Virus record (IMG/VR): IMGVR_UViG_2721755647_000001
DNA from: a virus
Taxonomy: Monodnaviria; Loebvirae; Hofneiviricota; Faserviricetes; Tubulavirales; Inoviridae
Length of the DNA: 10,010 nt
Reading direction: 5' to 3' (one strand)
Under the pieces are notes generated by a model. The model saw only the letters and a list, made by a program, of their open reading frames with translations, was not told the DNA's origin and did not search any database. This document shows, piece by piece, positions 1 to 10,010 of this stretch. How positions within the stretch are numbered: position 1 is the first letter of the stretch; the number at the start of each line of letters is the position of its first letter. Both the position numbers and the translations under genes were made by a program.

Positions 1-5
1 ACATA

Positions 6-146
6 TTACTTTCCTTGTGTTGGTTTAGTAGTGGATTGTTGAGCTTTTTCTAAAAGCCTTTTTGCTTTAGATGTGTCCAAACCATCTTGGGCAAAGCCTT
101 GTTGCTTATCATTCTGTTTTTGTTCACTTTTTTTTGGCGTATTCAT
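6..146 (-). CDS. Hypothetical small Lys/Gln-rich protein (about 46 aa, MNTPKKSEQKQNDKQQGF...) in the non-repeated left flank
   Basis: In-frame ATG at 146-144 on the - strand within the 6..320 ORF; weak RBS; sits behind a leader homologous to the one upstream of the 140-aa membrane-protein gene in copy 2. Low-complexity sequence, so it may not be a real gene. Confidence 0.2.
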   Translation of the reverse strand: MNTPKKSEQKQNDKQQGFAQDGLDTSKAKRLLEKAQQSTTKPTQGK

Positions 147-215
147 CAGTATATACTTTGACTCGTTTTGTTTATCTCGATGACTTACTTTTTGTTTAAG
201 TTTTGCACAAACTAG

Positions 216-261
216 AACGTGCAGTGTTGGTAATACTGCACGTTTGTACCATTCGTGGTAC
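216..261 (-). terminator. Twin stem-loops: AACGTGCAGT-9nt-ACTGCACGTT (216-244) and GTACCA-ttcg-TGGTAC (246-261); a terminator or attenuator after the RHH gene, or possibly (-) strand-origin-like hairpins
   Basis: Perfect inverted repeats read directly from the sequence, immediately after the stop codon (262-264) of the - strand RHH ORF; a U-rich tract follows on the - strand in copy 2. Confidence 0.4.
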
Positions 262-444
262 TTAATCCTTTTGTTTGGCAGACATGAGATCTTCTGCTGC
301 ATCTTTAGAGTAGTTATCAATCAGATAACCTAAAATCTCTGTCCATGTAATTGTTTTTCCTAGTTTTACACTGGCATTTATAGCCAGTCGTTCTAGTTTC
401 ATTTTTCTTTCTTCCGTCACGTTATAAGTCGTGCGCTTTGCCAT
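262..444 (-). CDS. Ribbon-helix-helix (CopG/Arc/MetJ-like) putative transcriptional repressor, 60 aa
   Basis: MAKRTTYNVTEERKMKLERLAINASVKLGKTITWTEILGYLIDNY has the beta-strand then two helices pattern of CopG (recalled RLTITLSESVLENLEKMAREMGLSKSAMISVALENY); divergent from gII; present in both repeat copies. RBS is weak. Confidence 0.5.
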   Translation of the reverse strand: MAKRTTYNVTEERKMKLERLAINASVKLGKTITWTEILGYLIDNYSKDAAEDLMSAKQKD

Positions 445-571
445 TTTTTACGCTCGTTCAATGCAATATTTGAAGTGAGTATACATGCTCATGAACTCAT
501 ATCATCCAAGCCTCTTGAACTCACTAGCTCACTGATGTAATGTTAAAACACTAATGAACTACTGAACTCAT
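445..571. promoter_or_regulatory. Divergent control region between the RHH gene and gII, with four TGAACTCA/TGAACTAC repeats, a CTCACT direct repeat and a candidate gII promoter (TTGAAC-17nt-TAATGT, 515-543); possible (+) origin or operator
   Basis: Repeats at 492-499, 516-523, 555-562 and 563-570 read from the sequence; -35/-10-like hexamers with 17-nt spacing. The canonical M13 nick motif was not found by eye. Confidence 0.4.
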
Positions 572-613
572 GTGTTAGTAAGTCGTCATTTTTGCAATTT
601 TGAGGATTTATTC

Positions 614-1666
614 GTGATCGATTGGCTTACCGGGATTTTCCCTTGCACACACAAACCGCTTCCGGCGGGGAGTGTTGTCAGCGTTGATGCTGACGGTGCA
701 ATTGAGTGGGAAACCGTTAAGCGACTGACTGTTCGCGGCTCGCATGAAGCAACGATGAAAGTACGATCGATAGGATCTAATGGCGAAGGTAAAGCGACAC
801 ATTTGTACATTGATGGTAATCCGTCCAAGTTTTTGCAGGGGCATTCTGTTGTTGGGTCGGATGATATACAAGGGCTCATGTTGACGGTCTATGCCAGGAT
901 TTTATCCTTATTGAATATTCCTCATGATTTAGCGTCTTATAAAGCTGTTATAGCAGGTCAGTATAAAATTTCACGTGTTGACATTAATTACATGTATTCA
1001 TTATCTACGCTAGAAAATGTCAGATCATGGCTTTATGCCGCCGAATTTAAAGCTAAAACACGCCATGGTCGCGCATGTGGGAAAGGCGGTACAGTTTATT
1101 TAGGTAAAAACTCCCGTCGATGGAGTCTGAAATTTTATTCAAAATATGATGAACACGTTTCGGGTAAAAAAGGGCACCAGATAGCCGAAGATTTTGTACG
1201 AGCCGGGTTACTGGACTGGACGAAAGATAAATTACGTATTGAATTAACATTAAGAACAACTGAGCTTATTGATTTAAATTTAACGCTTGGCGCTAACTGG
1301 AATATGAAAACACCACGTCAATTATTCTCTGAATATGTAGGGAGAATAGAAATGAATCAGAATGCTATTTTAAGTGATGAAAAAATAACGAAACTGCCAA
1401 GAAAAATACAGTCAACTTATTTACTTTGGAAACAAGGGGCTAACATGAAAGAAATGTTACCTCATAACACTTTTTATCGCCATAGAAGAGAATTGCTTTC
1501 GTTCGGTATCGATATTAATTTCTATTGTGATTCACCAGACTCTAATAACGTTGTTCCGCTAATAAGAACGCTGGAAGCCAAGCCAGTGGAAATCCCCTTA
1601 TGGATTTATGAGAAAGGTTTTATTTTCGATTACAACCGTATTTCGCACGCCAGTAGCTGGCATTAA
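614..1666 (+). CDS. gII: Gene II replication initiation (nicking-closing) protein; likely GTG start at 614 preceded by GAGGA (the ORF track begins at an upstream GTG at 572)
   Basis: From 614 the product begins (M)IDWL..., like M13 pII MIDML...; internal NPSKFLQGHSVVGSDD resembles M13 pII SPAKVLQGHNVFGTTD; first gene of the Ff order. Confidence 0.8.
   Translation: MIDWLTGIFPCTHKPLPAGSVVSVDADGAIEWETVKRLTVRGSHEATMKVRSIGSNGEGKATHLYIDGNPSKFLQGHSVVGSDDIQGLMLTVYARILSLLNIPHDLASYKAVIAGQYKISRVDINYMYSLSTLENVRSWLYAAEFKAKTRHGRACGKGGTVYLGKNSRRWSLKFYSKYDEHVSGKKGHQIAEDFVRAGLLDWTKDKLRIELTLRTTELIDLNLTLGANWNMKTPRQLFSEYVGRIEMNQNAILSDEKITKLPRKIQSTYLLWKQGANMKEMLPHNTFYRHRRELLSFGIDINFYCDSPDSNNVVPLIRTLEAKPVEIPLWIYEKGFIFDYNRISHASSWH
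1352..1666 (+). CDS. gX: Gene X protein, an in-frame internal restart within gII (104 aa)
   Basis: In-frame ATG at 1352 preceded by GGAG at 7-nt spacing; analogous to M13 pX (the C-terminal third of pII). An alternative in-frame ATG at 1304 has no SD. Confidence 0.45.
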   Translation: MNQNAILSDEKITKLPRKIQSTYLLWKQGANMKEMLPHNTFYRHRRELLSFGIDINFYCDSPDSNNVVPLIRTLEAKPVEIPLWIYEKGFIFDYNRISHASSWH

Positions 1667-2487: not shown

Positions 2488-3738
2488 ATGAAAAGGAAAA
2501 TATTAATTCTTTCCGCTGTCCTCATTTCTCCTTTTTCACATGCTGAGTCATGGGAAAGCATTACTAAATCCACTTATCAAAGCTCTGCCTACGCTGAAAG
2601 TAAGCAAATAACCAATCAGGATGGCTCTAAGTCAACGGTTTACTATATTGATGCTGCTATGCAGGCCTCCGCTTGTCAGGGTGCTAAATCCAGTGCTCAG
2701 AGTGTATTTACTCAGGTTAAACCAACTTATGAGGGTATCTGGCCTGATTCTGAATTCCGTCTTGTTTTTACTGGTGATTGTACTTACAGCGATTCACCAG
2801 GGCAGAAGGATAAATATTGGTCTTTAACGGCTTATATTGTTGGTGATATTCAGCGTTCTGTTCCTGATGAAAAACCTACTGACCCGACACCAGAAGAAAT
2901 TTGTGAAGCGAAGCCGCCAGAAGAAGGTGTATTTAATAATGTTGATTCATATGATGGTGGTCGTTATATCTACTATAACGGCTGTGAATATGAGGCTACT
3001 GGTGTCATTGTTTGTCAGGGTGATGGTACTGTTTGCGCTGCAACATGGAAGCCTACAGGTACTGTAGCTGACCCCTCTGATAAACCCTCAACCCCCCAAA
3101 ATGGTGGTGGTGAGTCTGGCGGTGGTGAGTCTGGCGGTGGTGAGTCCGGTGGCGGTAGTTCTGGCGGTGGTGAGTCCGGTGGCGGTAGTTCTGGCGGTGG
3201 CTTTAGTGGTTCCAGTCTTTCTAAAGGTGATATTCAGTCTGCTATCGAAGGTGCTTCACCCAAAATAGCCAGCGATATTCATGATAAATTAACGGAGAAA
3301 GACACTTCATCAGATGATAAAAAAAATGCCGATGAACAAACTAGGAATAATATAAATCGTCTTGACGATTCCATTAACAATCTTACGCGGGGGGCTGGCC
3401 GTTTTGCTGACCCTTCAGGTGGTGATTCTCGTTATGGAAAGGGCGACTCTGAATTAGATGGCGCTTCTACTTTGGCTGATTCTGAATTGGGAATTGAAAA
3501 GGATTCTCACGGTGCTTTATGGGAAGCATTTTTAAATAAAGGTGCTATGCTGCCTAATTTACCCAATGGTAACGGCTGCTCTGATTTTATTATTTTTCCC
3601 GGAGAGGTTTATCAGATTGATATTGGTTGCGATAAATTACTGACTATTAAAGATGTTCTTTCATGGGTTTTTTATTGCCTTACGTTCTGGTATGTCTTTA
3701 CTTCTTTAACTTCATTGCTTCGCAAAGGGGGTGAGTGA
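2488..3738 (+). CDS. gIII: Gene III adsorption protein (416 aa) with signal peptide, Gly-rich linker and C-terminal membrane anchor; true start 2488, not the ORF-track 2344
   Basis: [19 protein letters not shown] signal; [10 protein letters not shown] repeats; hydrophobic C-terminus like M13 pIII; starts just after the gVIII terminator. Confidence 0.85.
3103..3204 (+). repeat. Tandem 15-bp (GGxGGxGAGTCy) repeats encoding the pIII glycine-rich linker, including a perfect 30-bp duplication (3133-3162 = 3163-3192)
   Basis: Read directly from the sequence; encodes [33 protein letters not shown]. Confidence 0.85.
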
Positions 3739-5181: not shown

Positions 5182-6447
5182 ATGCGCTCTGTTATTGTTG
5201 CTTTTTTATTTGCCTGTTCATTCTGCGTTTCTGCTGAAACTGTTAATTTAAACAATTCATCTGTTCGCTCATTTGTTCAGTGGTATTCTTCAAAAACTGG
5301 CAAGCCTGTTATTGTTAATCCTGATATTAAAGGAAACGTAACCGTATTTAATGCTGATGTTAATCCAACAAATATTGATGATTTCTTTAAGTCTGTTCTG
5401 AATGCTAACGGTTTTGTCATGCTTTCTGGCAATCCTGCGGTAGTCTCTTTGCCGTCTAAATTACCTTCACAGATGGTTTCGGATTCCGATGATTCTGATA
5501 ACCAGTCTTATGATACTTTTCCTTCTGAGCCATCTTACCAGCCAGTACCTGTGGCGCTTACGGTCAGAAATTTTAAGCTGACAAAAGTTAGATCGTCCGA
5601 TGTTCAGCAACTGATTAAAATTTATCTTGATTCTAATGGTGGTGGTAATGTCGTGGATTATCCAGGCAATAACTCGCTGATTGTTTCTGCGCCTGACGAG
5701 CTGCTGCCGGTTCTGTCCGATTTTATCAATTCTGTGGATGTTGCCCGCGATCAGGTTCTCATTCAGTCGCTGATGTTTGAAACCAGCTTGTCTGATGGCG
5801 TTGATTTATCGTTTGCGGCAGGTTCTGCATCCGGTCATAAGGTTGCGGGGGGCTTTAATACTTCTGCACTGGGTAGCGCTCTTTCTACGGCGGGCGGTTC
5901 TTTTGGTATTTTTGATGGTAACGTGTTGGCGCTGTCTCTGCGTGCTGTCCAGAGTAATTCACGCTCTAAGGTGATTTCAACGCCGCGTATTCTTACTCAG
6001 TCTGGTCAGACTGGTTACATTTCCGTAGGTAAGAATGTGCCGTTTATCACCGGAAAGGTAACGGGCGAATCTGCCGGGGTAAATAATCCGTTTCAGACTA
6101 TCGAGCGTCATGATGTTGGCGTTTCTCTCAAGGTAACGCCTGTTGTCATGGGTAACGGGCAACTAGTTCTGACTATCGACACTCGCGCTGATTCAATCAG
6201 CAATGATGATCAGGCATCCGATATTATTACTAATCAGCGCCAGATTCAGACGACAGTCCAGATTAAGGATGGTCAGACGTTGTTATTGGGGGGGCTTATC
6301 GATTCATCGTTTAGCAATGCTGAGCGTTCAGTTCCAGTTATAAGTAAAATTCCTCTTATAGGCTGGATTTTCAGTAGCAAGGCAGACAGCAATGAACAGC
6401 GTATTATGTATATTTTGCTTACAGCACATATCATTCGTCCACTTTGA
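5182..6447 (+). CDS. gIV: Gene IV secretin (outer-membrane export channel, 421 aa); true start 5182 (MRSVIVAFLF...), not the ORF-track 5089
   Basis: Signal peptide, then extended similarity to recalled M13 pIV (NNSSVRSFVQWYS vs NNSPLRDFVTWYS; VPFITGKVTGESAGVNNPFQTIER conserved); RBS AGGAG. Confidence 0.9.
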   Translation: MRSVIVAFLFACSFCVSAETVNLNNSSVRSFVQWYSSKTGKPVIVNPDIKGNVTVFNADVNPTNIDDFFKSVLNANGFVMLSGNPAVVSLPSKLPSQMVSDSDDSDNQSYDTFPSEPSYQPVPVALTVRNFKLTKVRSSDVQQLIKIYLDSNGGGNVVDYPGNNSLIVSAPDELLPVLSDFINSVDVARDQVLIQSLMFETSLSDGVDLSFAAGSASGHKVAGGFNTSALGSALSTAGGSFGIFDGNVLALSLRAVQSNSRSKVISTPRILTQSGQTGYISVGKNVPFITGKVTGESAGVNNPFQTIERHDVGVSLKVTPVVMGNGQLVLTIDTRADSISNDDQASDIITNQRQIQTTVQIKDGQTLLLGGLIDSSFSNAERSVPVISKIPLIGWIFSSKADSNEQRIMYILLTAHIIRPL

Positions 6448-6490
6448 TGGATAGCGGGTAGGTGCGTGAGCCCTGCTCGCTATCCATCAA
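6444..6490 (+). other. Long hairpin (13-bp perfect stem TTGATGGATAGCG / CGCTATCCATCAA with a structured interior) overlapping the gIV stop; packaging-signal-like and/or terminator
   Basis: Inverted repeat read directly; in Ff phages the packaging-signal hairpin lies immediately downstream of gIV. Confidence 0.55.
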
Positions 6491-6516
6491 ATGGACATTA
6501 TTGATTGGGGTAACTA

Positions 6517-6825
6517 ATGGATTCTTATGGGATTTTATCTGCTCTGGCAGAACGAACGATTACAGCGGAAGAAGCAAAAACAATGACACTTGCAGCCAGA
6601 AGTTCTTCGGCTCAGGTAAATGAAGCATCACTTGCTCTGTTACTGATTGATAATACTCTGGATGCGATCAAAGCAGCTGCCAGTGAAGGGAAAGGATACA
6701 CTTTACTTCCTTCTTATGAGATTTCTTTAAAAGCCATTGATTTAGCAGAAGAATTTTTAAGGAAACAATGCGGCTATGTTATTGATAACCAGAATGGCGT
6801 AAGGACGGTCTATTGGTTTATATGA
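6517..6825 (+). CDS. Hypothetical protein (102 aa), first cargo gene after the packaging hairpin
   Basis: ORF with a GGGG-containing RBS 6 nt upstream; no recognisable family; followed by a stem-loop. Confidence 0.45.
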   Translation: MDSYGILSALAERTITAEEAKTMTLAARSSSAQVNEASLALLLIDNTLDAIKAAASEGKGYTLLPSYEISLKAIDLAEEFLRKQCGYVIDNQNGVRTVYWFI

Positions 6826-6828
6826 TAA

Positions 6829-6869
6829 CCCCGGACAGTGACAAAACTTGCTTTTGTTAGTGTCCGGGG
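6829..6869 (+). terminator. Extended imperfect stem-loop (CCCCGGACA...TGTCCGGGG with inner ACAAAA/TTTTGT pairing) between the two + strand cargo genes; a T7 run lies about 22 nt downstream
   Basis: Read from the sequence; the spacing to the T-run is not typical of an intrinsic terminator, so it could be an attenuator or structured RNA. Confidence 0.3.
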
Positions 6870-6942
6870 TTGGCCAAGCCGAACAATTCTGTTTTTTTAG
6901 CGTTATTGCTGATTCGGCGCGGCAGCATTACGAGGAGATAAA

Positions 6943-7176
6943 ATGCAATTTTTCACATCCAGCGATACTGTAATGTTATGTGCGAAGACCTGCGATCGCT
7001 GTGGTCGCCATGCGAAGACGGTGGTAGATGACATTGAGTTCAATGAGTTTCTGTCTGTTAATCACTTAGCTGGATACGGTTCAATTTTTGGTGACAGTAA
7101 TCGCTTAAAACTGGATTTATGCCAACATTGCCTGAAAGACGTCCTGGGCCAGTGGATTACGGTCTGTGACCAATGA
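6943..7176 (+). CDS. Hypothetical Zn-ribbon protein (77 aa; Cys17-x2-Cys20 ... Cys60-x2-Cys63)
   Basis: Strong RBS GAGGAG 5 nt upstream; paired CxxC motifs; no family recognised. Confidence 0.55.
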   Translation: MQFFTSSDTVMLCAKTCDRCGRHAKTVVDDIEFNEFLSVNHLAGYGSIFGDSNRLKLDLCQHCLKDVLGQWITVCDQ

Positions 7177-7214
7177 CGGCACCGGTAACGCCAGTTCCCA
7201 CCATCCTTACCATT

Positions 7215-7247
7215 GGTGCGCATAATGTACGACTCGTTATGTTGAAA
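7215..7247 (+). other. dif-like XerC/XerD recombination site, candidate attP of an integrative element exploiting Xer: perfect XerC arm GGTGCGCATAA, then TGTA, an atypical spacer, and a XerD-arm-like TTATGTTGAAA
   Basis: The first 15 nt (GGTGCGCATAATGTA) equal E. coli dif (GGTGCGCATAA-TGTATA-TTATGTTAAAT); the XerD-like arm matches 9 of 11 but is displaced 5 bp, giving an 11-bp rather than 6-bp central region. Confidence 0.55.
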
Positions 7248-7248
7248 A

Positions 7249-7285
7249 GGCCGCTGCGAAAATCGTATCCCGCAGCGGCCTCTTT
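7249..7285. terminator. Bidirectional rho-independent terminator (GGCCGCTGCG-12nt-CGCAGCGGCC) flanked by A-run and T-run, between the convergent cargo modules
   Basis: 10-bp GC-rich perfect stem; TCTTT downstream on +, TTTTC downstream on -; sits between the + ORF ending at 7176 and the - ORF ending at 7312. Confidence 0.7.
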
Positions 7286-7311
7286 AGCATAACGTCATTG
7301 TGCGAACCAAT

Positions 7312-7791
7312 TTATATAGAAATGAAAAACTCCTCTTCATTCCTTTTTTTATAATTGTCATCCCATATAAGTTTTATTCGGTATTTAGTTTTACTTCCAA
7401 AGCTTAGTCCCGCTAAAATTTCAATCCCATGTTGCGGGTGTAATACTTCATATGGAAATTTATCTTCTACATCATGCATGTAAAGATATTCATTGCCATC
7501 GTTATCAGGGAAATGAATTTCTATATTTTTAGCCTCAACTTTCCCTCTATTAAATATCTTGAGTCTATAGTTGTTTTTGGCTATTTTTACGAGGCGGGCA
7601 CCAAGCTCAGCCTTCATCTCATTAATTGCTGACTTTGTTTCTTTTTCTAGAAGCAACTTACGTAACCTGTCTTGCTCATCCTTTATAACCTTTTGTTCTC
7701 TATCACTTTTTCTCGACTTCACTTCTGATGATATGATAGTGTAAATCGATACTACAAGCGCAGCTAAAGCGATGGCATCACTCGTTGTCAT
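7312..7791 (-). CDS. Hypothetical membrane-anchored protein (159 aa): N-terminal TM helix, charged coiled-coil-like segment, C-terminal globular domain
   Basis: Start overlaps the stop of the upstream Zn-ribbon gene (TAATG), RBS AAGGA; hydrophobic AIALAALVVSIYTIISS then KSRKSDREQKVIKDEQDRLRKLLLEKE; about 30% GC by eye. Confidence 0.6.
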   Translation of the reverse strand: MTTSDAIALAALVVSIYTIISSEVKSRKSDREQKVIKDEQDRLRKLLLEKETKSAINEMKAELGARLVKIAKNNYRLKIFNRGKVEAKNIEIHFPDNDGNEYLYMHDVEDKFPYEVLHPQHGIEILAGLSFGSKTKYRIKLIWDDNYKKRNEEEFFISI

Positions 7792-8066
7792 TATTTAATC
7801 CTTATATTTTTACTTCCTTTAAATGCCTTTTTGAGCATATCATTAAACTGTTTTTGAATATCTTTTGTTAACTCTTCTTTTATCTCATCCACATGGGCGT
7901 CAATACTCACCCCGTTTTCTTGGATTAAATCATCATTAGTGAATTCTTTCCCGCAGCCTACACATCTGACGACTTCAGACTCTTCCTCGTGTTCCATCTC
8001 TGTATTTCCGCACACAGGACATAGCAGGGTGATATTTCTATTGTATTTCTCAGGATTCAGTTTCAT
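7791..8066 (-). CDS. Hypothetical Zn-ribbon protein (91 aa; CPVCG-x15-CVGCG) with an acidic/basic helical tail
   Basis: Good RBS GAGAGGAA; classic C-x2-C-x15-C-x2-C; translationally coupled to the downstream membrane-protein gene. Confidence 0.6.
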   Translation of the reverse strand: MKLNPEKYNRNITLLCPVCGNTEMEHEEESEVVRCVGCGKEFTNDDLIQENGVSIDAHVDEIKEELTKDIQKQFNDMLKKAFKGSKNIRIK

Positions 8067-8094
8067 ATATTTCCTCTCTTCTACGTTTTATTGA

Positions 8095-8517
8095 TTACCA
8101 GTAATATGAATTTCTTCTGTGCCACCAATAAAGCAGCCCGTATCCGATGATAAGAATTCCGAAAAACATCAACGACATTCCCCAGCCAGTTCCATACCAC
8201 GAAACCATATCATCGAAAACCAATCCACCCGTTTCACGTACTCCGGCAGCTTCCTTAAGGATTGGTTTGAATACCGGAATCAGAAGGGCAATCGCCAGTG
8301 GAGCACCCCAGCGAACAAGACCTGTTTCCATTTTGATCCCGAAAAAGATCCCCGCCCCGACAACAAGCAGCCAGACTATCAGGCCAGGCGCAGTTTCCAG
8401 TGCTGTTTGCCATTCAACATCGAAAGTTTTCATTAGCCAGGCAACAACTGCCAGACAGAAAGCAAATACGCCGACGACAACCAGTTCAACGCCGCTTGTT
8501 TCGTTGTTTCTACTCAT
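8095..8517 (-). CDS. Hypothetical integral membrane protein (140 aa, about 4 predicted TM helices)
   Basis: Four hydrophobic stretches of about 20 aa; Trp/Tyr-rich C-terminus; the antisense + ORFs are low-complexity artefacts; about 48% GC by eye, unlike its neighbours. Confidence 0.6.
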   Translation of the reverse strand: MSRNNETSGVELVVVGVFAFCLAVVAWLMKTFDVEWQTALETAPGLIVWLLVVGAGIFFGIKMETGLVRWGAPLAIALLIPVFKPILKEAAGVRETGGLVFDDMVSWYGTGWGMSLMFFGILIIGYGLLYWWHRRNSYYW

Positions 8518-8559
8518 CCTTTTGATCCTTTTTCACTGTTCAAAATTCGCACAATAAAG

Positions 8560-8605
8560 AACGTGCAGTGTTGGTAATACTGCACGTTTGTACCATTCGT
8601 GGTAC
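8560..8605 (-). terminator. Twin stem-loops, copy 2 (same as 216-261)
   Basis: Same sequence at +8344 offset; lies between the RHH gene and the 140-aa membrane-protein gene on the - strand. Confidence 0.4.
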
Positions 8606-8788
8606 TTAATCCTTTTGTTTGGCAGACATGAGATCTTCTGCTGCATCTTTAGAGTAGTTATCAATCAGATAACCTAAAATCTCTGTCCATGTAATTGTTT
8701 TTCCTAGTTTTACACTGGCATTTATAGCCAGTCGTTCTAGTTTCATTTTTCTTTCTTCCGTCACGTTATAAGTCGTGCGCTTTGCCAT
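8606..8788 (-). CDS. Ribbon-helix-helix putative repressor, copy 2
   Basis: Same 60-aa product as 262..444. Confidence 0.5.
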   Translation of the reverse strand: MAKRTTYNVTEERKMKLERLAINASVKLGKTITWTEILGYLIDNYSKDAAEDLMSAKQKD

Positions 8789-8915
8789 TTTTTACGCTCG
8801 TTCAATGCAATATTTGAAGTGAGTATACATGCTCATGAACTCATATCATCCAAGCCTCTTGAACTCACTAGCTCACTGATGTAATGTTAAAACACTAATG
8901 AACTACTGAACTCAT
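8789..8915. promoter_or_regulatory. Divergent control region with TGAACTCA repeats, copy 2
   Basis: Same as 445-571. Confidence 0.4.
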
Positions 8916-8957
8916 GTGTTAGTAAGTCGTCATTTTTGCAATTTTGAGGATTTATTC

Positions 8958-10010
8958 GTGATCGATTGGCTTACCGGGATTTTCCCTTGCACACACAAAC
9001 CGCTTCCGGCGGGGAGTGTTGTCAGCGTTGATGCTGACGGTGCAATTGAGTGGGAAACCGTTAAGCGACTGACTGTTCGCGGCTCGCATGAAGCAACGAT
9101 GAAAGTACGATCGATAGGATCTAATGGCGAAGGTAAAGCGACACATTTGTACATTGATGGTAATCCGTCCAAGTTTTTGCAGGGGCATTCTGTTGTTGGG
9201 TCGGATGATATACAAGGGCTCATGTTGACGGTCTATGCCAGGATTTTATCCTTATTGAATATTCCTCATGATTTAGCGTCTTATAAAGCTGTTATAGCAG
9301 GTCAGTATAAAATTTCACGTGTTGACATTAATTACATGTATTCATTATCTACGCTAGAAAATGTCAGATCATGGCTTTATGCCGCCGAATTTAAAGCTAA
9401 AACACGCCATGGTCGCGCATGTGGGAAAGGCGGTACAGTTTATTTAGGTAAAAACTCCCGTCGATGGAGTCTGAAATTTTATTCAAAATATGATGAACAC
9501 GTTTCGGGTAAAAAAGGGCACCAGATAGCCGAAGATTTTGTACGAGCCGGGTTACTGGACTGGACGAAAGATAAATTACGTATTGAATTAACATTAAGAA
9601 CAACTGAGCTTATTGATTTAAATTTAACGCTTGGCGCTAACTGGAATATGAAAACACCACGTCAATTATTCTCTGAATATGTAGGGAGAATAGAAATGAA
9701 TCAGAATGCTATTTTAAGTGATGAAAAAATAACGAAACTGCCAAGAAAAATACAGTCAACTTATTTACTTTGGAAACAAGGGGCTAACATGAAAGAAATG
9801 TTACCTCATAACACTTTTTATCGCCATAGAAGAGAATTGCTTTCGTTCGGTATCGATATTAATTTCTATTGTGATTCACCAGACTCTAATAACGTTGTTC
9901 CGCTAATAAGAACGCTGGAAGCCAAGCCAGTGGAAATCCCCTTATGGATTTATGAGAAAGGTTTTATTTTCGATTACAACCGTATTTCGCACGCCAGTAG
10001 CTGGCATTAA
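8958..10010 (+). CDS. gII: Gene II replication initiation protein, copy 2 (ORF track starts at 8916)
   Basis: Same product as the first-copy gII. Confidence 0.8.
   Translation: MIDWLTGIFPCTHKPLPAGSVVSVDADGAIEWETVKRLTVRGSHEATMKVRSIGSNGEGKATHLYIDGNPSKFLQGHSVVGSDDIQGLMLTVYARILSLLNIPHDLASYKAVIAGQYKISRVDINYMYSLSTLENVRSWLYAAEFKAKTRHGRACGKGGTVYLGKNSRRWSLKFYSKYDEHVSGKKGHQIAEDFVRAGLLDWTKDKLRIELTLRTTELIDLNLTLGANWNMKTPRQLFSEYVGRIEMNQNAILSDEKITKLPRKIQSTYLLWKQGANMKEMLPHNTFYRHRRELLSFGIDINFYCDSPDSNNVVPLIRTLEAKPVEIPLWIYEKGFIFDYNRISHASSWH
9696..10010 (+). CDS. gX: Gene X in-frame restart, copy 2
   Basis: Same as 1352..1666. Confidence 0.45.
   Translation: MNQNAILSDEKITKLPRKIQSTYLLWKQGANMKEMLPHNTFYRHRRELLSFGIDINFYCDSPDSNNVVPLIRTLEAKPVEIPLWIYEKGFIFDYNRISHASSWH

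Follow-up and report, generated by a model that had tools for sequence, protein, structure and literature searches.

Exchangeable cargo slots, a putative CTXφ-type attachment site and a candidate defence cassette in the accessory region of UPΦ-type filamentous prophages

In this study, we analysed a 10,010-nucleotide stretch of DNA from an inovirus (IMG/VR record IMGVR_UViG_2721755647_000001; hereafter the window), concentrating on positions 6491-8558, where five small open reading frames (ORFs) lie around a dif-like site between the phage gene gIV and a gene for a putative repressor. The window is 100% identical to the reverse strand of the Escherichia coli ECONIH2 chromosome (NZ_CP014667.1, 1589605-1599614), and this locus was read with 12-kb flanks around the window (locus L001). 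In the chromosome, a dif-like site comes after hipB-hipA; then follow three copies of an 8,344-bp filamentous prophage arranged head to tail, a canonical dif (GGTGCGCATAATGTATATTATGTTAAAT) and host genes. Window positions 193-1666 recur at 8537-10010 (repeat D1) because the window is a tandem prophage array, each copy of which contains a 60-amino-acid (60-aa) putative repressor on the minus strand and then gII, gV, gVII, gVIII, gIII, gVI, gI and gIV on the plus strand. Positions 6491-8558 hold the attachment site and the accessory genes of a UPΦ-type filamentous prophage, of which ECONIH2 has three tandem copies at dif. This type of prophage combines IKe-like morphogenesis genes with a gII-gV module like that of CUS-1/Ypfφ. 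An earlier reading of the window from its letters alone (the sequence-only reading) had described an inovirus of IKe type in which five additional genes occupy what is merely intergenic in IKe, and it was right in this. At nucleotide level, IKe and the Erwinia PEar phages are matched by gIV only. The five ORFs that it listed (6517-8517), the dif-like site and the hairpin are all present where it had placed them, and the genes form two convergent modules around the latter two elements.

The group to which this prophage belongs has been named 'UPΦ viruses' after UPΦ901 from urinary E. coli (Shapiro & Putonti, Virus Evol 2020, 6:veaa030; PMC7307601). The authors of that study reported core genes like those of IKe/I2-2 and in the same order, gII/gV more than 85% identical to those of Ypfφ, a dif site, two novel plus-strand genes (h1 and h2) where IKe is intergenic, and three reverse ORFs beside dif; h3 was present in 221 of 229 prophages, and h4 and h5 in 56-57. 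They also found the group enriched in urine and urinary tract infection (UTI) isolates, described ECONIH2 (CP014667) explicitly as a tandem triple with heterogeneous copies, and proposed an interaction of h1 with h2. The window prophage has all of the testable membership features, including h1 and h2 between gIV and dif (p102 and Zn77, within 6517-7176) and tandem integration at dif (three units between hipA and the canonical site). In our naming, h1 is p102, h2 is Zn77, h3 is TM140 and h4/h5 are Zn91/p159. Thus, the element, its five orphan genes and the very strain were published in 2020, and what we describe is a rediscovery. The novelty that the sequence-only reading had seen in the gene set does not hold; the same set is found in known inoviruses, namely UPΦ, and no functions were assigned to h1-h5 there (PMC7307601). 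No match to 6400-8700 was obtained by nucleotide search in 50,697 phage records, a result that is uninformative on novelty because UPΦ has not been deposited there as a phage. The same layout, with ORFs of unassigned function at both prophage ends, is also known from the CUS-1/Ypfφ literature (PMC4266046). Among 5,426 complete E. coli genomes, we identified h3 alone in 128 and the full h3-h5 trio in 28, in agreement with the published frequencies, and the h1-h2 block in 49, always at least 99% identical. Searches of the literature returned no papers on ECs_2282 and no functional follow-up to UPΦ h1-h5. New with respect to the published description are the finding that h4-h5 form a mobile pair that also occurs outside inoviruses, the exact slot boundaries, the defence-type alternatives in one slot and the folded attP hairpin.

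Coordinates of the genes, structured elements and slot 3 cassettes are collected in Table 1. RefSeq annotates all five ORFs as coding sequences in ECONIH2, and each of the five proteins matches a PHROG family of its own over the full length. The ratio of nonsynonymous to synonymous substitution rates (dN/dS) was 0.03-0.13 in pairwise comparisons for all five (0.075 for h2, 0.03-0.12 for Zn91, 0.07-0.12 for h3; pairs with estimable dS only, dS being near or beyond saturation), with frames intact in orthologues of 47-95% amino acid identity. These low ratios and intact frames imply that the five ORFs are genuine protein-coding genes, and all five are under strong purifying selection. They are small, they lack Pfam domains and the region is non-coding in IKe and M13, so they might be taken for spurious ORFs in a long intergenic region; the probability of this is close to nil in view of the dN/dS values, the frames that stay intact in orthologues down to 36-60% identity, the conserved lengths, the confident folded models and the conserved Cys ligands. 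A lack of coding signal, which the sequence-only reading had allowed for, was therefore not what we found.

Table 1. Genes, structured DNA elements and slot 3 cassettes (window positions unless a locus is named)
Feature	Position	Strand	Description
Hairpin	6443-6491	+	20-bp stem, overlaps the gIV stop codon; inverted repeat I5, 90% complementary
h1 (p102)	6517-6825	+	102 aa, soluble, no Zn motif; slot 1
Double hairpin	6826-6923	+	parts slot 1 from slot 2
h2 (Zn77)	6943-7176	+	77 aa, CxxC...CxxC zinc ribbon; phrog_5435; slot 2, last gene before attP
attP	7212-7311	+	forked hairpin as plus single-stranded DNA
attP XerC arm, GGTGCGCATAA	7215-7225	+	dif-like site
attP XerD-like arm, TTATGTTGAAA	7237-7247	+	dif-like site
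GC-rich inverted repeat	7235-7294	+	inner XerD-like arm plus stem
Slot 3, window copy	7312-8066	-	Zn91 + p159
p159 (h4/h5 cassette)	7312-7791	-	159 aa; transmembrane anchor, coiled coil, β-sandwich (predicted)
Zn91 (h4/h5 cassette)	7791-8066	-	91 aa; predicted Zn-ribbon + C-terminal helix; stop overlaps p159 start by 1 nt
h3 (TM140)	8095-8517	-	140 aa, four predicted transmembrane segments (hydropathy); between repressor and variable cassette
Shared-sequence start	8537-8605		in all prophage copies; right limit of the replaceable region when h3 is also replaced
Palindrome I1, AACGTGCAGTGTTGGTAATACTGCACGTT	8560-8588		29 nt, between repressor gene and h3
Putative repressor	8606-8788	-	60 aa, phrog_2503, β-α-α pattern, ribbon-helix-helix-like by sequence
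Slot 3, ECONIH2 copy 1	L001 11025-12192 (window 1-192 is its end)	-	46 + 91 + 230 aa set; also replaces h3
Slot 3, UTI89	L002 8785-9894		369-aa membrane protein; split homologue in strain 1434 (L032 3600-4196)
Slot 3, strain Res13			AbiJ_NTD4 + DUF7014 protein (STM4504 family; PADLOC candidate PDC-S32)
Slot 3, strain 1368KP			DpnII/MboI-type restriction endonuclease-domain protein (matches Aga_Helical-REase, PDC-S35) + DUF6953
Slot 3, Phytobacter, Rosenbergiella, Salmonella			other unannotated sets

As to protein families, scans with Pfam, NCBIfam and PADLOC gave a single assignment for the five proteins: Zn91 is a member of NCBIfam NF047912 (ECs_2282_CxxC; 65.5 bits against a cutoff of 37), a family of unassigned function whose name is used by RefSeq. 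Hence, the earlier statement that none of the five belongs to a recognised family needs correction for the 91-aa protein, and it stands in so far as none has a known function. Similarly, of the two plus-strand products that had been called Zn-ribbon proteins, the 77-aa one has the CxxC...CxxC motif and the 102-aa one does not; among the five, this motif occurs only in the 77-aa and 91-aa proteins. In PADLOC-DB v2.0, Zn91 yielded only zinc-ribbon matches to part of the candidates PDC-S64 (E 4.8e-7) and HEC-08, and h2 had no significant match (best Cas8b, E 0.023, 11.8 bits). Searches of solved structures by sequence with h1, h2 and a p159 profile gave nothing significant. p159 and h3 are predicted to be small inner-membrane proteins, and h1, h2 and Zn91 to be cytoplasmic.

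In single prophages (L004, L025 and L002), the integrated order is attL, the cassette, h3 and the repressor gene (all three on the minus strand), gII to gIV, h1, h2 and attR. It follows from the array that h1-h2 of the window belong to the right end of copy 1 and h3-h5 to the left end of copy 2, the halves being joined by attP. Only in the circular phage genome, or where two tandem copies meet, do the five genes lie side by side. What had been read as a single inserted 2.1-kb island is in fact three separately exchangeable cargo slots between conserved single-stranded DNA (ssDNA) elements, with its two halves in different prophage copies. Slot 1 holds h1 in UPΦ, a 60%-identical h1 in a Salmonella relative and an unrelated 82-aa ORF in UTI89, and is empty in Izhakiella. 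Slot 2 holds h2 in UPΦ and an unrelated 65-aa ORF in UTI89/CUS-1 and Izhakiella, and is empty in the Salmonella relative. Slot 3 is the interval from attP to h3. The minus-strand genes, which had been taken for a self-contained three-gene operon, consist of a semi-core h3 and a mobile two-gene cassette, and they lie downstream of the co-oriented 60-aa repressor gene.

The elements between the slots are conserved. The double hairpin is retained in UPΦ, the Salmonella relative, Izhakiella and CUS-1/UTI89 despite different flanking genes, and its consensus fold has 32 pairs, six of them with double-sided compensatory changes; comparable hairpins in the intergenic region of Ff phages make it a candidate for the minus-strand origin or a packaging signal. 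For the hairpin at the end of gIV, roles in packaging or in termination are both possible; the Salmonella and Izhakiella relatives retain it, and the Salmonella copy shows a compensatory A:T to C:G change. The palindrome between h3 and the repressor gene lies 23 nt from the point (8537) where two cassette variants diverge and is shared by the h3-less Salmonella relative; candidate roles are those of an operator, an attenuator or a portion of the plus-strand origin.

The dif-like site and the terminator that the sequence-only reading had listed separately form one folded attP structure. In the plus strand, the XerC arm makes the outer stem by pairing with 7296-7306, a central bulge follows, and then comes the inner stem, so that GGTGCGCATAATG pairs with CATTGTGCGAACC (the XerC arm) and TTATGTTGAAA with TTTAGCATAA, the latter duplex being extended by the GC-rich stem; the bulge stands in place of the central region. 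Folding of 7205-7320 as plus ssDNA gave -31.2 kcal/mol (z = -7.6), and none of 200 shuffled sequences folded as well. Since the folded attP spans both the dif-like arms and the GC-rich repeat, dif-like site and bidirectional terminator are one element. Short T-tracts come after the stem on both strands; as double-stranded DNA or RNA, the hairpin resembles a bidirectional terminator, and such a role is plausible. At the chromosomal ends of the array, attL, beside hipA, reads GGTGCGCATAA followed by TGTACGACTCG, and attR is the canonical dif GGTGCGCATAATGTATATTATGTTAAAT, in which single prophages likewise end. A hybrid attL (host XerC arm and phage centre) and an attR in which the phage XerC arm and the host centre and XerD arm make an intact dif fit an exchange on the XerC side. 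These are the features of a CTXφ-type site, that is, two inverted dif-like half-sites forming a forked hairpin, a hybrid site on one side and the host dif restored on the other. By sequence and structure, the UPΦ attP is such a site. Judging from this anatomy, attP of the plus ssDNA would fold into a forked hairpin that presents the XerC arm, a bulged centre and the XerD-like arm, and exchange with dif on the XerC side would leave the hybrid attL and an intact dif at attR. A CTX-like hairpin has already been proposed for Ypfφ (PMC4266046). We also noticed a UPΦ copy (IMGVR_UViG_3300032124_000004, L044/L012) that ends at position 8266 in GGTGCGCATAATGTAATAACGTCATC, neither dif nor the usual attP, which suggests integration into, or recombination with, a different Xer-type site.

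Slot 3, between attP and h3, receives hypervariable cargo. Ten variants of its content start within a few bases of the end of the attP hairpin (...TGTGCGAACCAA) and finish at the h3 stop codon, and phage backbones are 98.4-98.7% identical while their cassettes are unrelated. Recognised defence-type domains occur in two of about ten phage cassettes (AbiJ_NTD4 with DUF7014, and the DpnII/MboI-type endonuclease; no background rate enters this count). Comparison of L001 11025-12146 with 19312-20517 revealed a further cassette in copy 1 of ECONIH2, and window positions 1-192 correspond to the end of this cassette, with its 46-aa ORF and the start of its 91-aa ORF; the 230-aa ORF of this set lies further left and has C-terminal transmembrane (TM) helices. 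Two cassettes on identical backbones make ECONIH2 an array with two cassette variants. A distant homologue (29%) of the 230-aa ORF comes after h3 in Klebsiella spallanzanii. In addition, AAGGAAAGTAATATGT gives a perfect 16-nt inverted match between window positions 1-16 and 1666-1681 (about 0.05 expected by chance in 10 kb), and the ribosome-binding site and start of the 91-aa gene of the copy 1 cassette are identical to those of gV; the match may be a borrowed translation-initiation sequence or a coincidence. An 'NKGKxKEKNV' β-strand motif, present in the 369-aa protein of UTI89 and in the strain 1434 homologue, has a counterpart in 'NRGKVEAKNI' of p159, and several cassettes may encode membrane proteins with a related β-sandwich. 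Homology of p159 to the 369-aa protein, for which a shared 'NKGKxxxKNV' strand motif would speak, is not claimed, the hhalign probability being 20%.

A mixed array also offers a way to exchange cassettes. If rolling-circle copying starts at the origin of one copy and stops at the origin of the following copy, the virion genome would consist of the upstream backbone and the downstream att-proximal cassette, so a mixed tandem array such as that of ECONIH2 would re-pair the attP-proximal cassette with a new backbone. We infer that UPΦ cassettes may be reshuffled through such arrays, by analogy with CTXφ, for which hybrid virion genomes from mixed tandem arrays were reportedly found by Davis and Waldor in 2000. 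The same precedent was invoked for UPΦ in the original description (PMC7307601).

The attP hairpin is not confined to phages. Of 438 plasmid records with a match to the window, for the most part conjugative IncF plasmids, most have its 72-nt inner part (7238-7309) and the 3' arm (90-96% identity), and the upstream XerC arm is absent from these copies. At the plasmid loci (L029 and L030), the hairpin adjoins either an AbiJ-like gene of the STM4504 family, which is 60% identical to the phage cassette where the hairpin itself is 93% identical, or, on pECO-816c, a PDC-M50A and ThsB-like TIR pair. Cassettes with the arm motif beside them were likewise seen in Klebsiella islands and on small contigs. 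Phage integration into plasmids may have left the plasmid hairpins behind as relics, or they may constitute a portable hairpin-cassette unit.

The cassette of the window itself, Zn91 + p159, was found to travel as a pair. p159 is predicted to have an N-terminal TM anchor, a coiled-coil helix of about 55 residues and a C-terminal Ig-like β-sandwich; nearly all of its 72 homologues are 155-160 aa long, and all named ones come from Enterobacterales, including plant- and insect-associated and environmental genera (Lonsdalea, Pantoea, Izhakiella and Pragia). A search of viral models (BFVD) with the p159 fold returned uncharacterised TM proteins. In every context examined, an ORF of 64-99 aa (84-93 aa in all but two) lies directly upstream of the p159 homologue, usually overlapping it by 1 nt (stop/start), and wherever this ORF was aligned or tested by tblastn it was a Zn91 homologue, down to 46%/36% identity. 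The predicted zinc ligands of Zn91 (C16, C19, C35 and C38) are invariant in five aligned sequences. Within inoviruses, the pair occupies the slot in E. coli, Izhakiella and S. diarizonae. Outside inoviruses, it was found beside SIR2-STAND and a type I restriction-modification (R-M) system, beside AIPR, an HNH protein and a CBASS (cyclic oligonucleotide-based antiphage signaling system) operon in Serratia, beside BrxR in a Citrobacter island and beside TacAT and ParDE in Klebsiella. In the prophage, the repressor gene is followed in the same orientation by h3, Zn91 and p159; the gaps are short and the ribosome-binding sites good. A cassette downstream of and co-oriented with a repressor gene is probably expressed in the lysogen. 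The repressor heads this leftward string, and a σ70-like -35/-10 element lies upstream of it at 8849-8822 on the minus strand.

Taken together, identity, layout, CTXφ-type attP, exchangeable slots, reshuffling and a defence-type cassette make up the account that we prefer, and we hold it to be somewhat better than evenly balanced. Its functional part is more tentative. From architecture and neighbourhood, Zn91 + p159 could be autonomous two-gene cargo, expressed in the lysogen as a membrane-associated superinfection-exclusion or abortive-infection (Abi) module, and for this we would give slightly less than an even chance. The pair would probably act at the inner face of the membrane against other phages, with p159 as a membrane-anchored scaffold or effector and Zn91 as its translationally coupled partner or sensor.

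Several results weigh against this account. p159, h3 and h1 had no match in PADLOC v2 (PADLOC-DB v2.0) and no Pfam score above 14.4 bits (gathering cut-offs at least 27), and family scans of Zn91 and p159 revealed no enzymatic or known effector domain. Seven of about ten alternative cassettes are unannotated, and three of the seven non-inovirus contexts of the pair have no obvious defence neighbours. The attP arm motif still stands beside the Klebsiella copies of the pair and the Serratia island is near dif, so that some 'island' contexts are probably decayed Xer-integrated elements and not independent acquisitions, which weakens the argument by association. A promoter scan gave fewer promoter-like sites than shuffled sequence; co-transcription of the repressor gene and the cassette is suggested by orientation, short gaps and one weak promoter match, and transcripts from the repressor gene could end at the 8560-8588 palindrome before they reach h3. 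With regard to attP, XerC catalysis and integration as ssDNA are predictions.

The Serratia proteamaculans island (L023, 4633-16200) begins at a canonical dif and comprises Zn91-p159 together with the HNH protein and the AIPR and CBASS operons. Its arrangement would fit Xer-integrated elements that decayed in an array; neither further dif-like sites in the island nor a conserved attP site between p159 and the h2-like gene were found.

Other roles for these genes have to be considered. One is in the life cycle of the phage, where h3 and/or h4-h5 would steer lysogeny, virion output or inovirus immunity, as KKP and PfiAT do in Pf phages, with h2 as a Xer accessory factor at attP (a positional analogue of XafT) and h1 as a DNA-binding regulator. 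The near-constant linkage of h3 to the repressor, also in the published prophages (PMC7307601), points this way, as do the h2 homologues, which come last before attR in each of three divergent inovirus backbones (the att-proximal gene of Vibrio CTX-I is xafT), the resemblance of the h1 model to winged-helix DNA binders and the dual lysogeny and defence roles of Pf accessory modules. However, in several genomes Zn91-p159 stands without any inovirus genes, so that dependence on the phage is impossible for the pair. h2 gave no DUF3653/XafT match; close relatives integrate at dif without it, and it is also found in a defence island and on a plasmid-like contig. h1 is absent from relatives with a 92%-identical gIV. 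We consider a life-cycle role unlikely. A role in lysogenic conversion, in which the att-proximal genes would alter host behaviour in the urinary tract or gut as ctxAB does in CTXφ, appears improbable. The position equals that of ctxAB (PMC4266046; PMC7307601), the enrichment of UPΦ in urine and UTI isolates (PMC7307601) would agree with it, and Ypfφ and CUS-1 confer modest fitness gains in vivo (PMC4266046). On the other hand, the five proteins have no signal peptide or toxin, adhesin or secreted-effector feature, the pair is spread over Enterobacterales from plants, insects and the environment, and sister cassettes in the same slot are Abi- or nuclease-like.

The remaining alternative is a toxin-antitoxin (TA)-like addiction module by which the prophage or island would be stabilised, p159 acting as the membrane toxin and Zn91 as its antitoxin. 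Two small genes with a 1-nt overlap would suit it, and so would the place of the pair among TacAT and ParDE in Klebsiella islands and the fact that TA pairs are the commonest content of the variable loci of Vibrio inoviruses (PMC11630473, PMC12715192). The N-terminus of p159 is weakly similar to a holin PHROG (E 0.006) and Zn91 to MqsA/YgiT-type zinc-finger antitoxin models (E 0.0013-0.022, below cutoff), but the latter similarity is limited to the zinc-ribbon motif (18.5 bits against a cutoff of 61.8) and no significant match to any TA family was obtained, which makes this module quite improbable as a separate explanation. As TA action and abortive infection are not mutually exclusive, it is partly a sub-case of the exclusion or abortive-infection reading. 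A wider proposal goes beyond that reading, namely that h4-h5 are an unrecognised two-gene, membrane-anchored anti-phage system without enzymatic domain and, jointly, that cassettes have a portable, Xer-dependent end in the folded attP hairpin. Conjugative IncF plasmids, dif-proximal chromosomal islands and inoviruses of UPΦ type could then swap defence cassettes at the hairpin because all of them pass through ssDNA, in a manner reminiscent of integron attC sites or Acinetobacter pdif modules. Both parts together would have to be true, and we regard the proposal as doubtful.

For h1, h2 and h3, we have leads only: the winged-helix-like fold of h1, the position of h2 beside attP in several backbones, and the four TM segments of h3 with its near-constant linkage to the repressor. 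h1 has few relatives; its C-terminal 65 residues are highly conserved, its place after gIV is kept in the Salmonella relative, and its model predicts a weak winged-helix-like fold. Homologues of h2 with 54-64% identity are the last plus-strand gene before attR/dif in two other inovirus backbones, a likeness to xafT of Vibrio CTX-I phages in position only: a Pfam scan of h2 at E up to 1 gave weak zinc-finger matches and no DUF3653/XafT domain. More distant homologues (42-46%; 67-74 aa) occur twice in the Serratia defence island, at the 3' ends of the AIPR and CBASS operons, and a 71% homologue lies on a plasmid-like contig. h2 is dispensable in close relatives, where it is absent or replaced. 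h1 and h2 each occur without the other, which argues against the obligate interaction proposed previously (PMC7307601). It was also considered whether h1/h2 are homologues of YPO2280a/YPO2281, and this was rejected: the attR-side ORFs of the UTI89 CUS-1-lineage prophage (82 and 65 aa) have no tblastn match to h1/h2. h3 is an orphan family with 32 representatives in 1.84 billion proteins. As a semi-core gene, it remains linked to the repressor even where the repressor type or the structural module differs (e.g., UTI89), and it may serve in inovirus immunity or exclusion or be part of the cargo; the contexts of its distant homologues were uninformative or probable dif-region relics. The 60-aa repressor gene takes the position of rstR/YPO2273 (PMC4266046).

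Three observations concern other UPΦ records and genes. A contig labelled as a 'Candidatus Nanosynbacter' metagenome-assembled genome (JARKOR010000214.1, L004) contains a complete UPΦ prophage between an E. coli-type dif and attL, with h1-h5 97-100% identical to those of the window in amino acid sequence; this is almost certainly a mis-binned Enterobacteriaceae contig. In the assembly of E. coli EC5502 (NZ_CP092647.1), there are 16-17 tandem UPΦ copies with many genes frameshifted differently per copy. The frameshifts look like uncorrected long-read error, and the array length may be real or an assembly artefact, e.g., of replicative-form reads. Within gIII, 15-nt tandem repeats (3088-3207) encode a Gly-rich linker, and the repeat number of this linker differs between UPΦ isolates (PMC7307601).

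With respect to the published trio of reverse ORFs, h3, a semi-core membrane gene, is now set apart from the mobile Zn91 + p159 cassette, and, in its variability, the slot beside attP behaves like the defence hot spots of Vibrio inoviruses. The residual interest lies in functions, above all that of Zn91-p159 as a defence candidate: its places beside CBASS, SIR2-STAND, R-M and BrxR in unrelated genomes make it a candidate for a cheap phage-resistance screen. Urinary E. coli commonly contain UPΦ prophages, which are also found in Klebsiella, Citrobacter and Salmonella. Should Zn91-p159 be protective against phage, these prophages would carry phage resistance in clinical isolates, which would bear on phage therapy.

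Compared with known systems, the window prophage belongs to the same group as UPΦ901 and the other UPΦ viruses and comes from a strain included there, with nothing structural that differs (PMC7307601). CUS-1 of E. coli O18:K1:H7 and Ypfφ of Yersinia pestis resemble UPΦ in integrating at dif in tandem arrays and in having an opposite-strand repressor, then variable attL-side ORFs, and attR-side ORFs at the other end (PMC4266046). Between the UTI89 CUS-1-lineage prophage and the window, h3 is 98%, gV 93% and gII 85% identical, and the double-hairpin element and attP sequence are shared, but gIV is only 27% identical and gVIII, gIII, gVI and gI have no match. CUS-1 further differs in its helix-turn-helix-type repressor, its attR-side ORFs of 82 and 65 aa and its attL cassette, the 369-aa membrane protein. 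Membership of CUS-1/Ypfφ would call for about 99% nucleotide identity over the 7.1-kb core with its structural genes. Core identity of this order is absent here and the structural genes are unrelated or distant, so by sequence the window prophage is not CUS-1/Ypfφ. IKe/I2-2 (Lineavirus) and the Erwinia PEar phages are alike in the morphogenesis module (gIV 79-88% nucleotide identity over short stretches; about 70% amino acid identity according to PMC7307601). They differ in being non-integrating, and they lack a dif/attP site, a repressor and all five genes.

CTXφ of Vibrio cholerae shares with UPΦ the forked-hairpin attP of two inverted dif-like half-sites, the dif restored on one side, the tandem arrays and the att-side cargo. 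Unlike in CTXφ, the UPΦ cargo is not a toxin, there is no sequence homology in cargo or repressor, and Xer dependence is predicted. With λ cI-rexAB and other exclusion genes of repressor operons there is an analogy only, small membrane-associated proteins downstream of a prophage repressor that the lysogen would thereby express, and no homology. The closest parallel for slot 3 is found in the dif-integrating inoviruses of Vibrio, which have a short (about 1-2 kb), fast-exchanged fixed locus beside the lysogeny/att module, enriched in Abi, TA, R-M and CBASS-type genes, with many unannotated TM genes and with degraded relics that keep the cargo (PMC11630473, PMC12715192). That hot spot lies between zot and xafT (in CTX-I), whereas the UPΦ slot lies between attP and h3/repressor on the opposite strand, has no xafT, carries other genes and belongs to Enterobacterales. 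Fixed position is common to both: in UPΦ, conserved flanks enclose unrelated contents in near-identical phages, and the slot would be a new instance of the pattern published for Vibrio.

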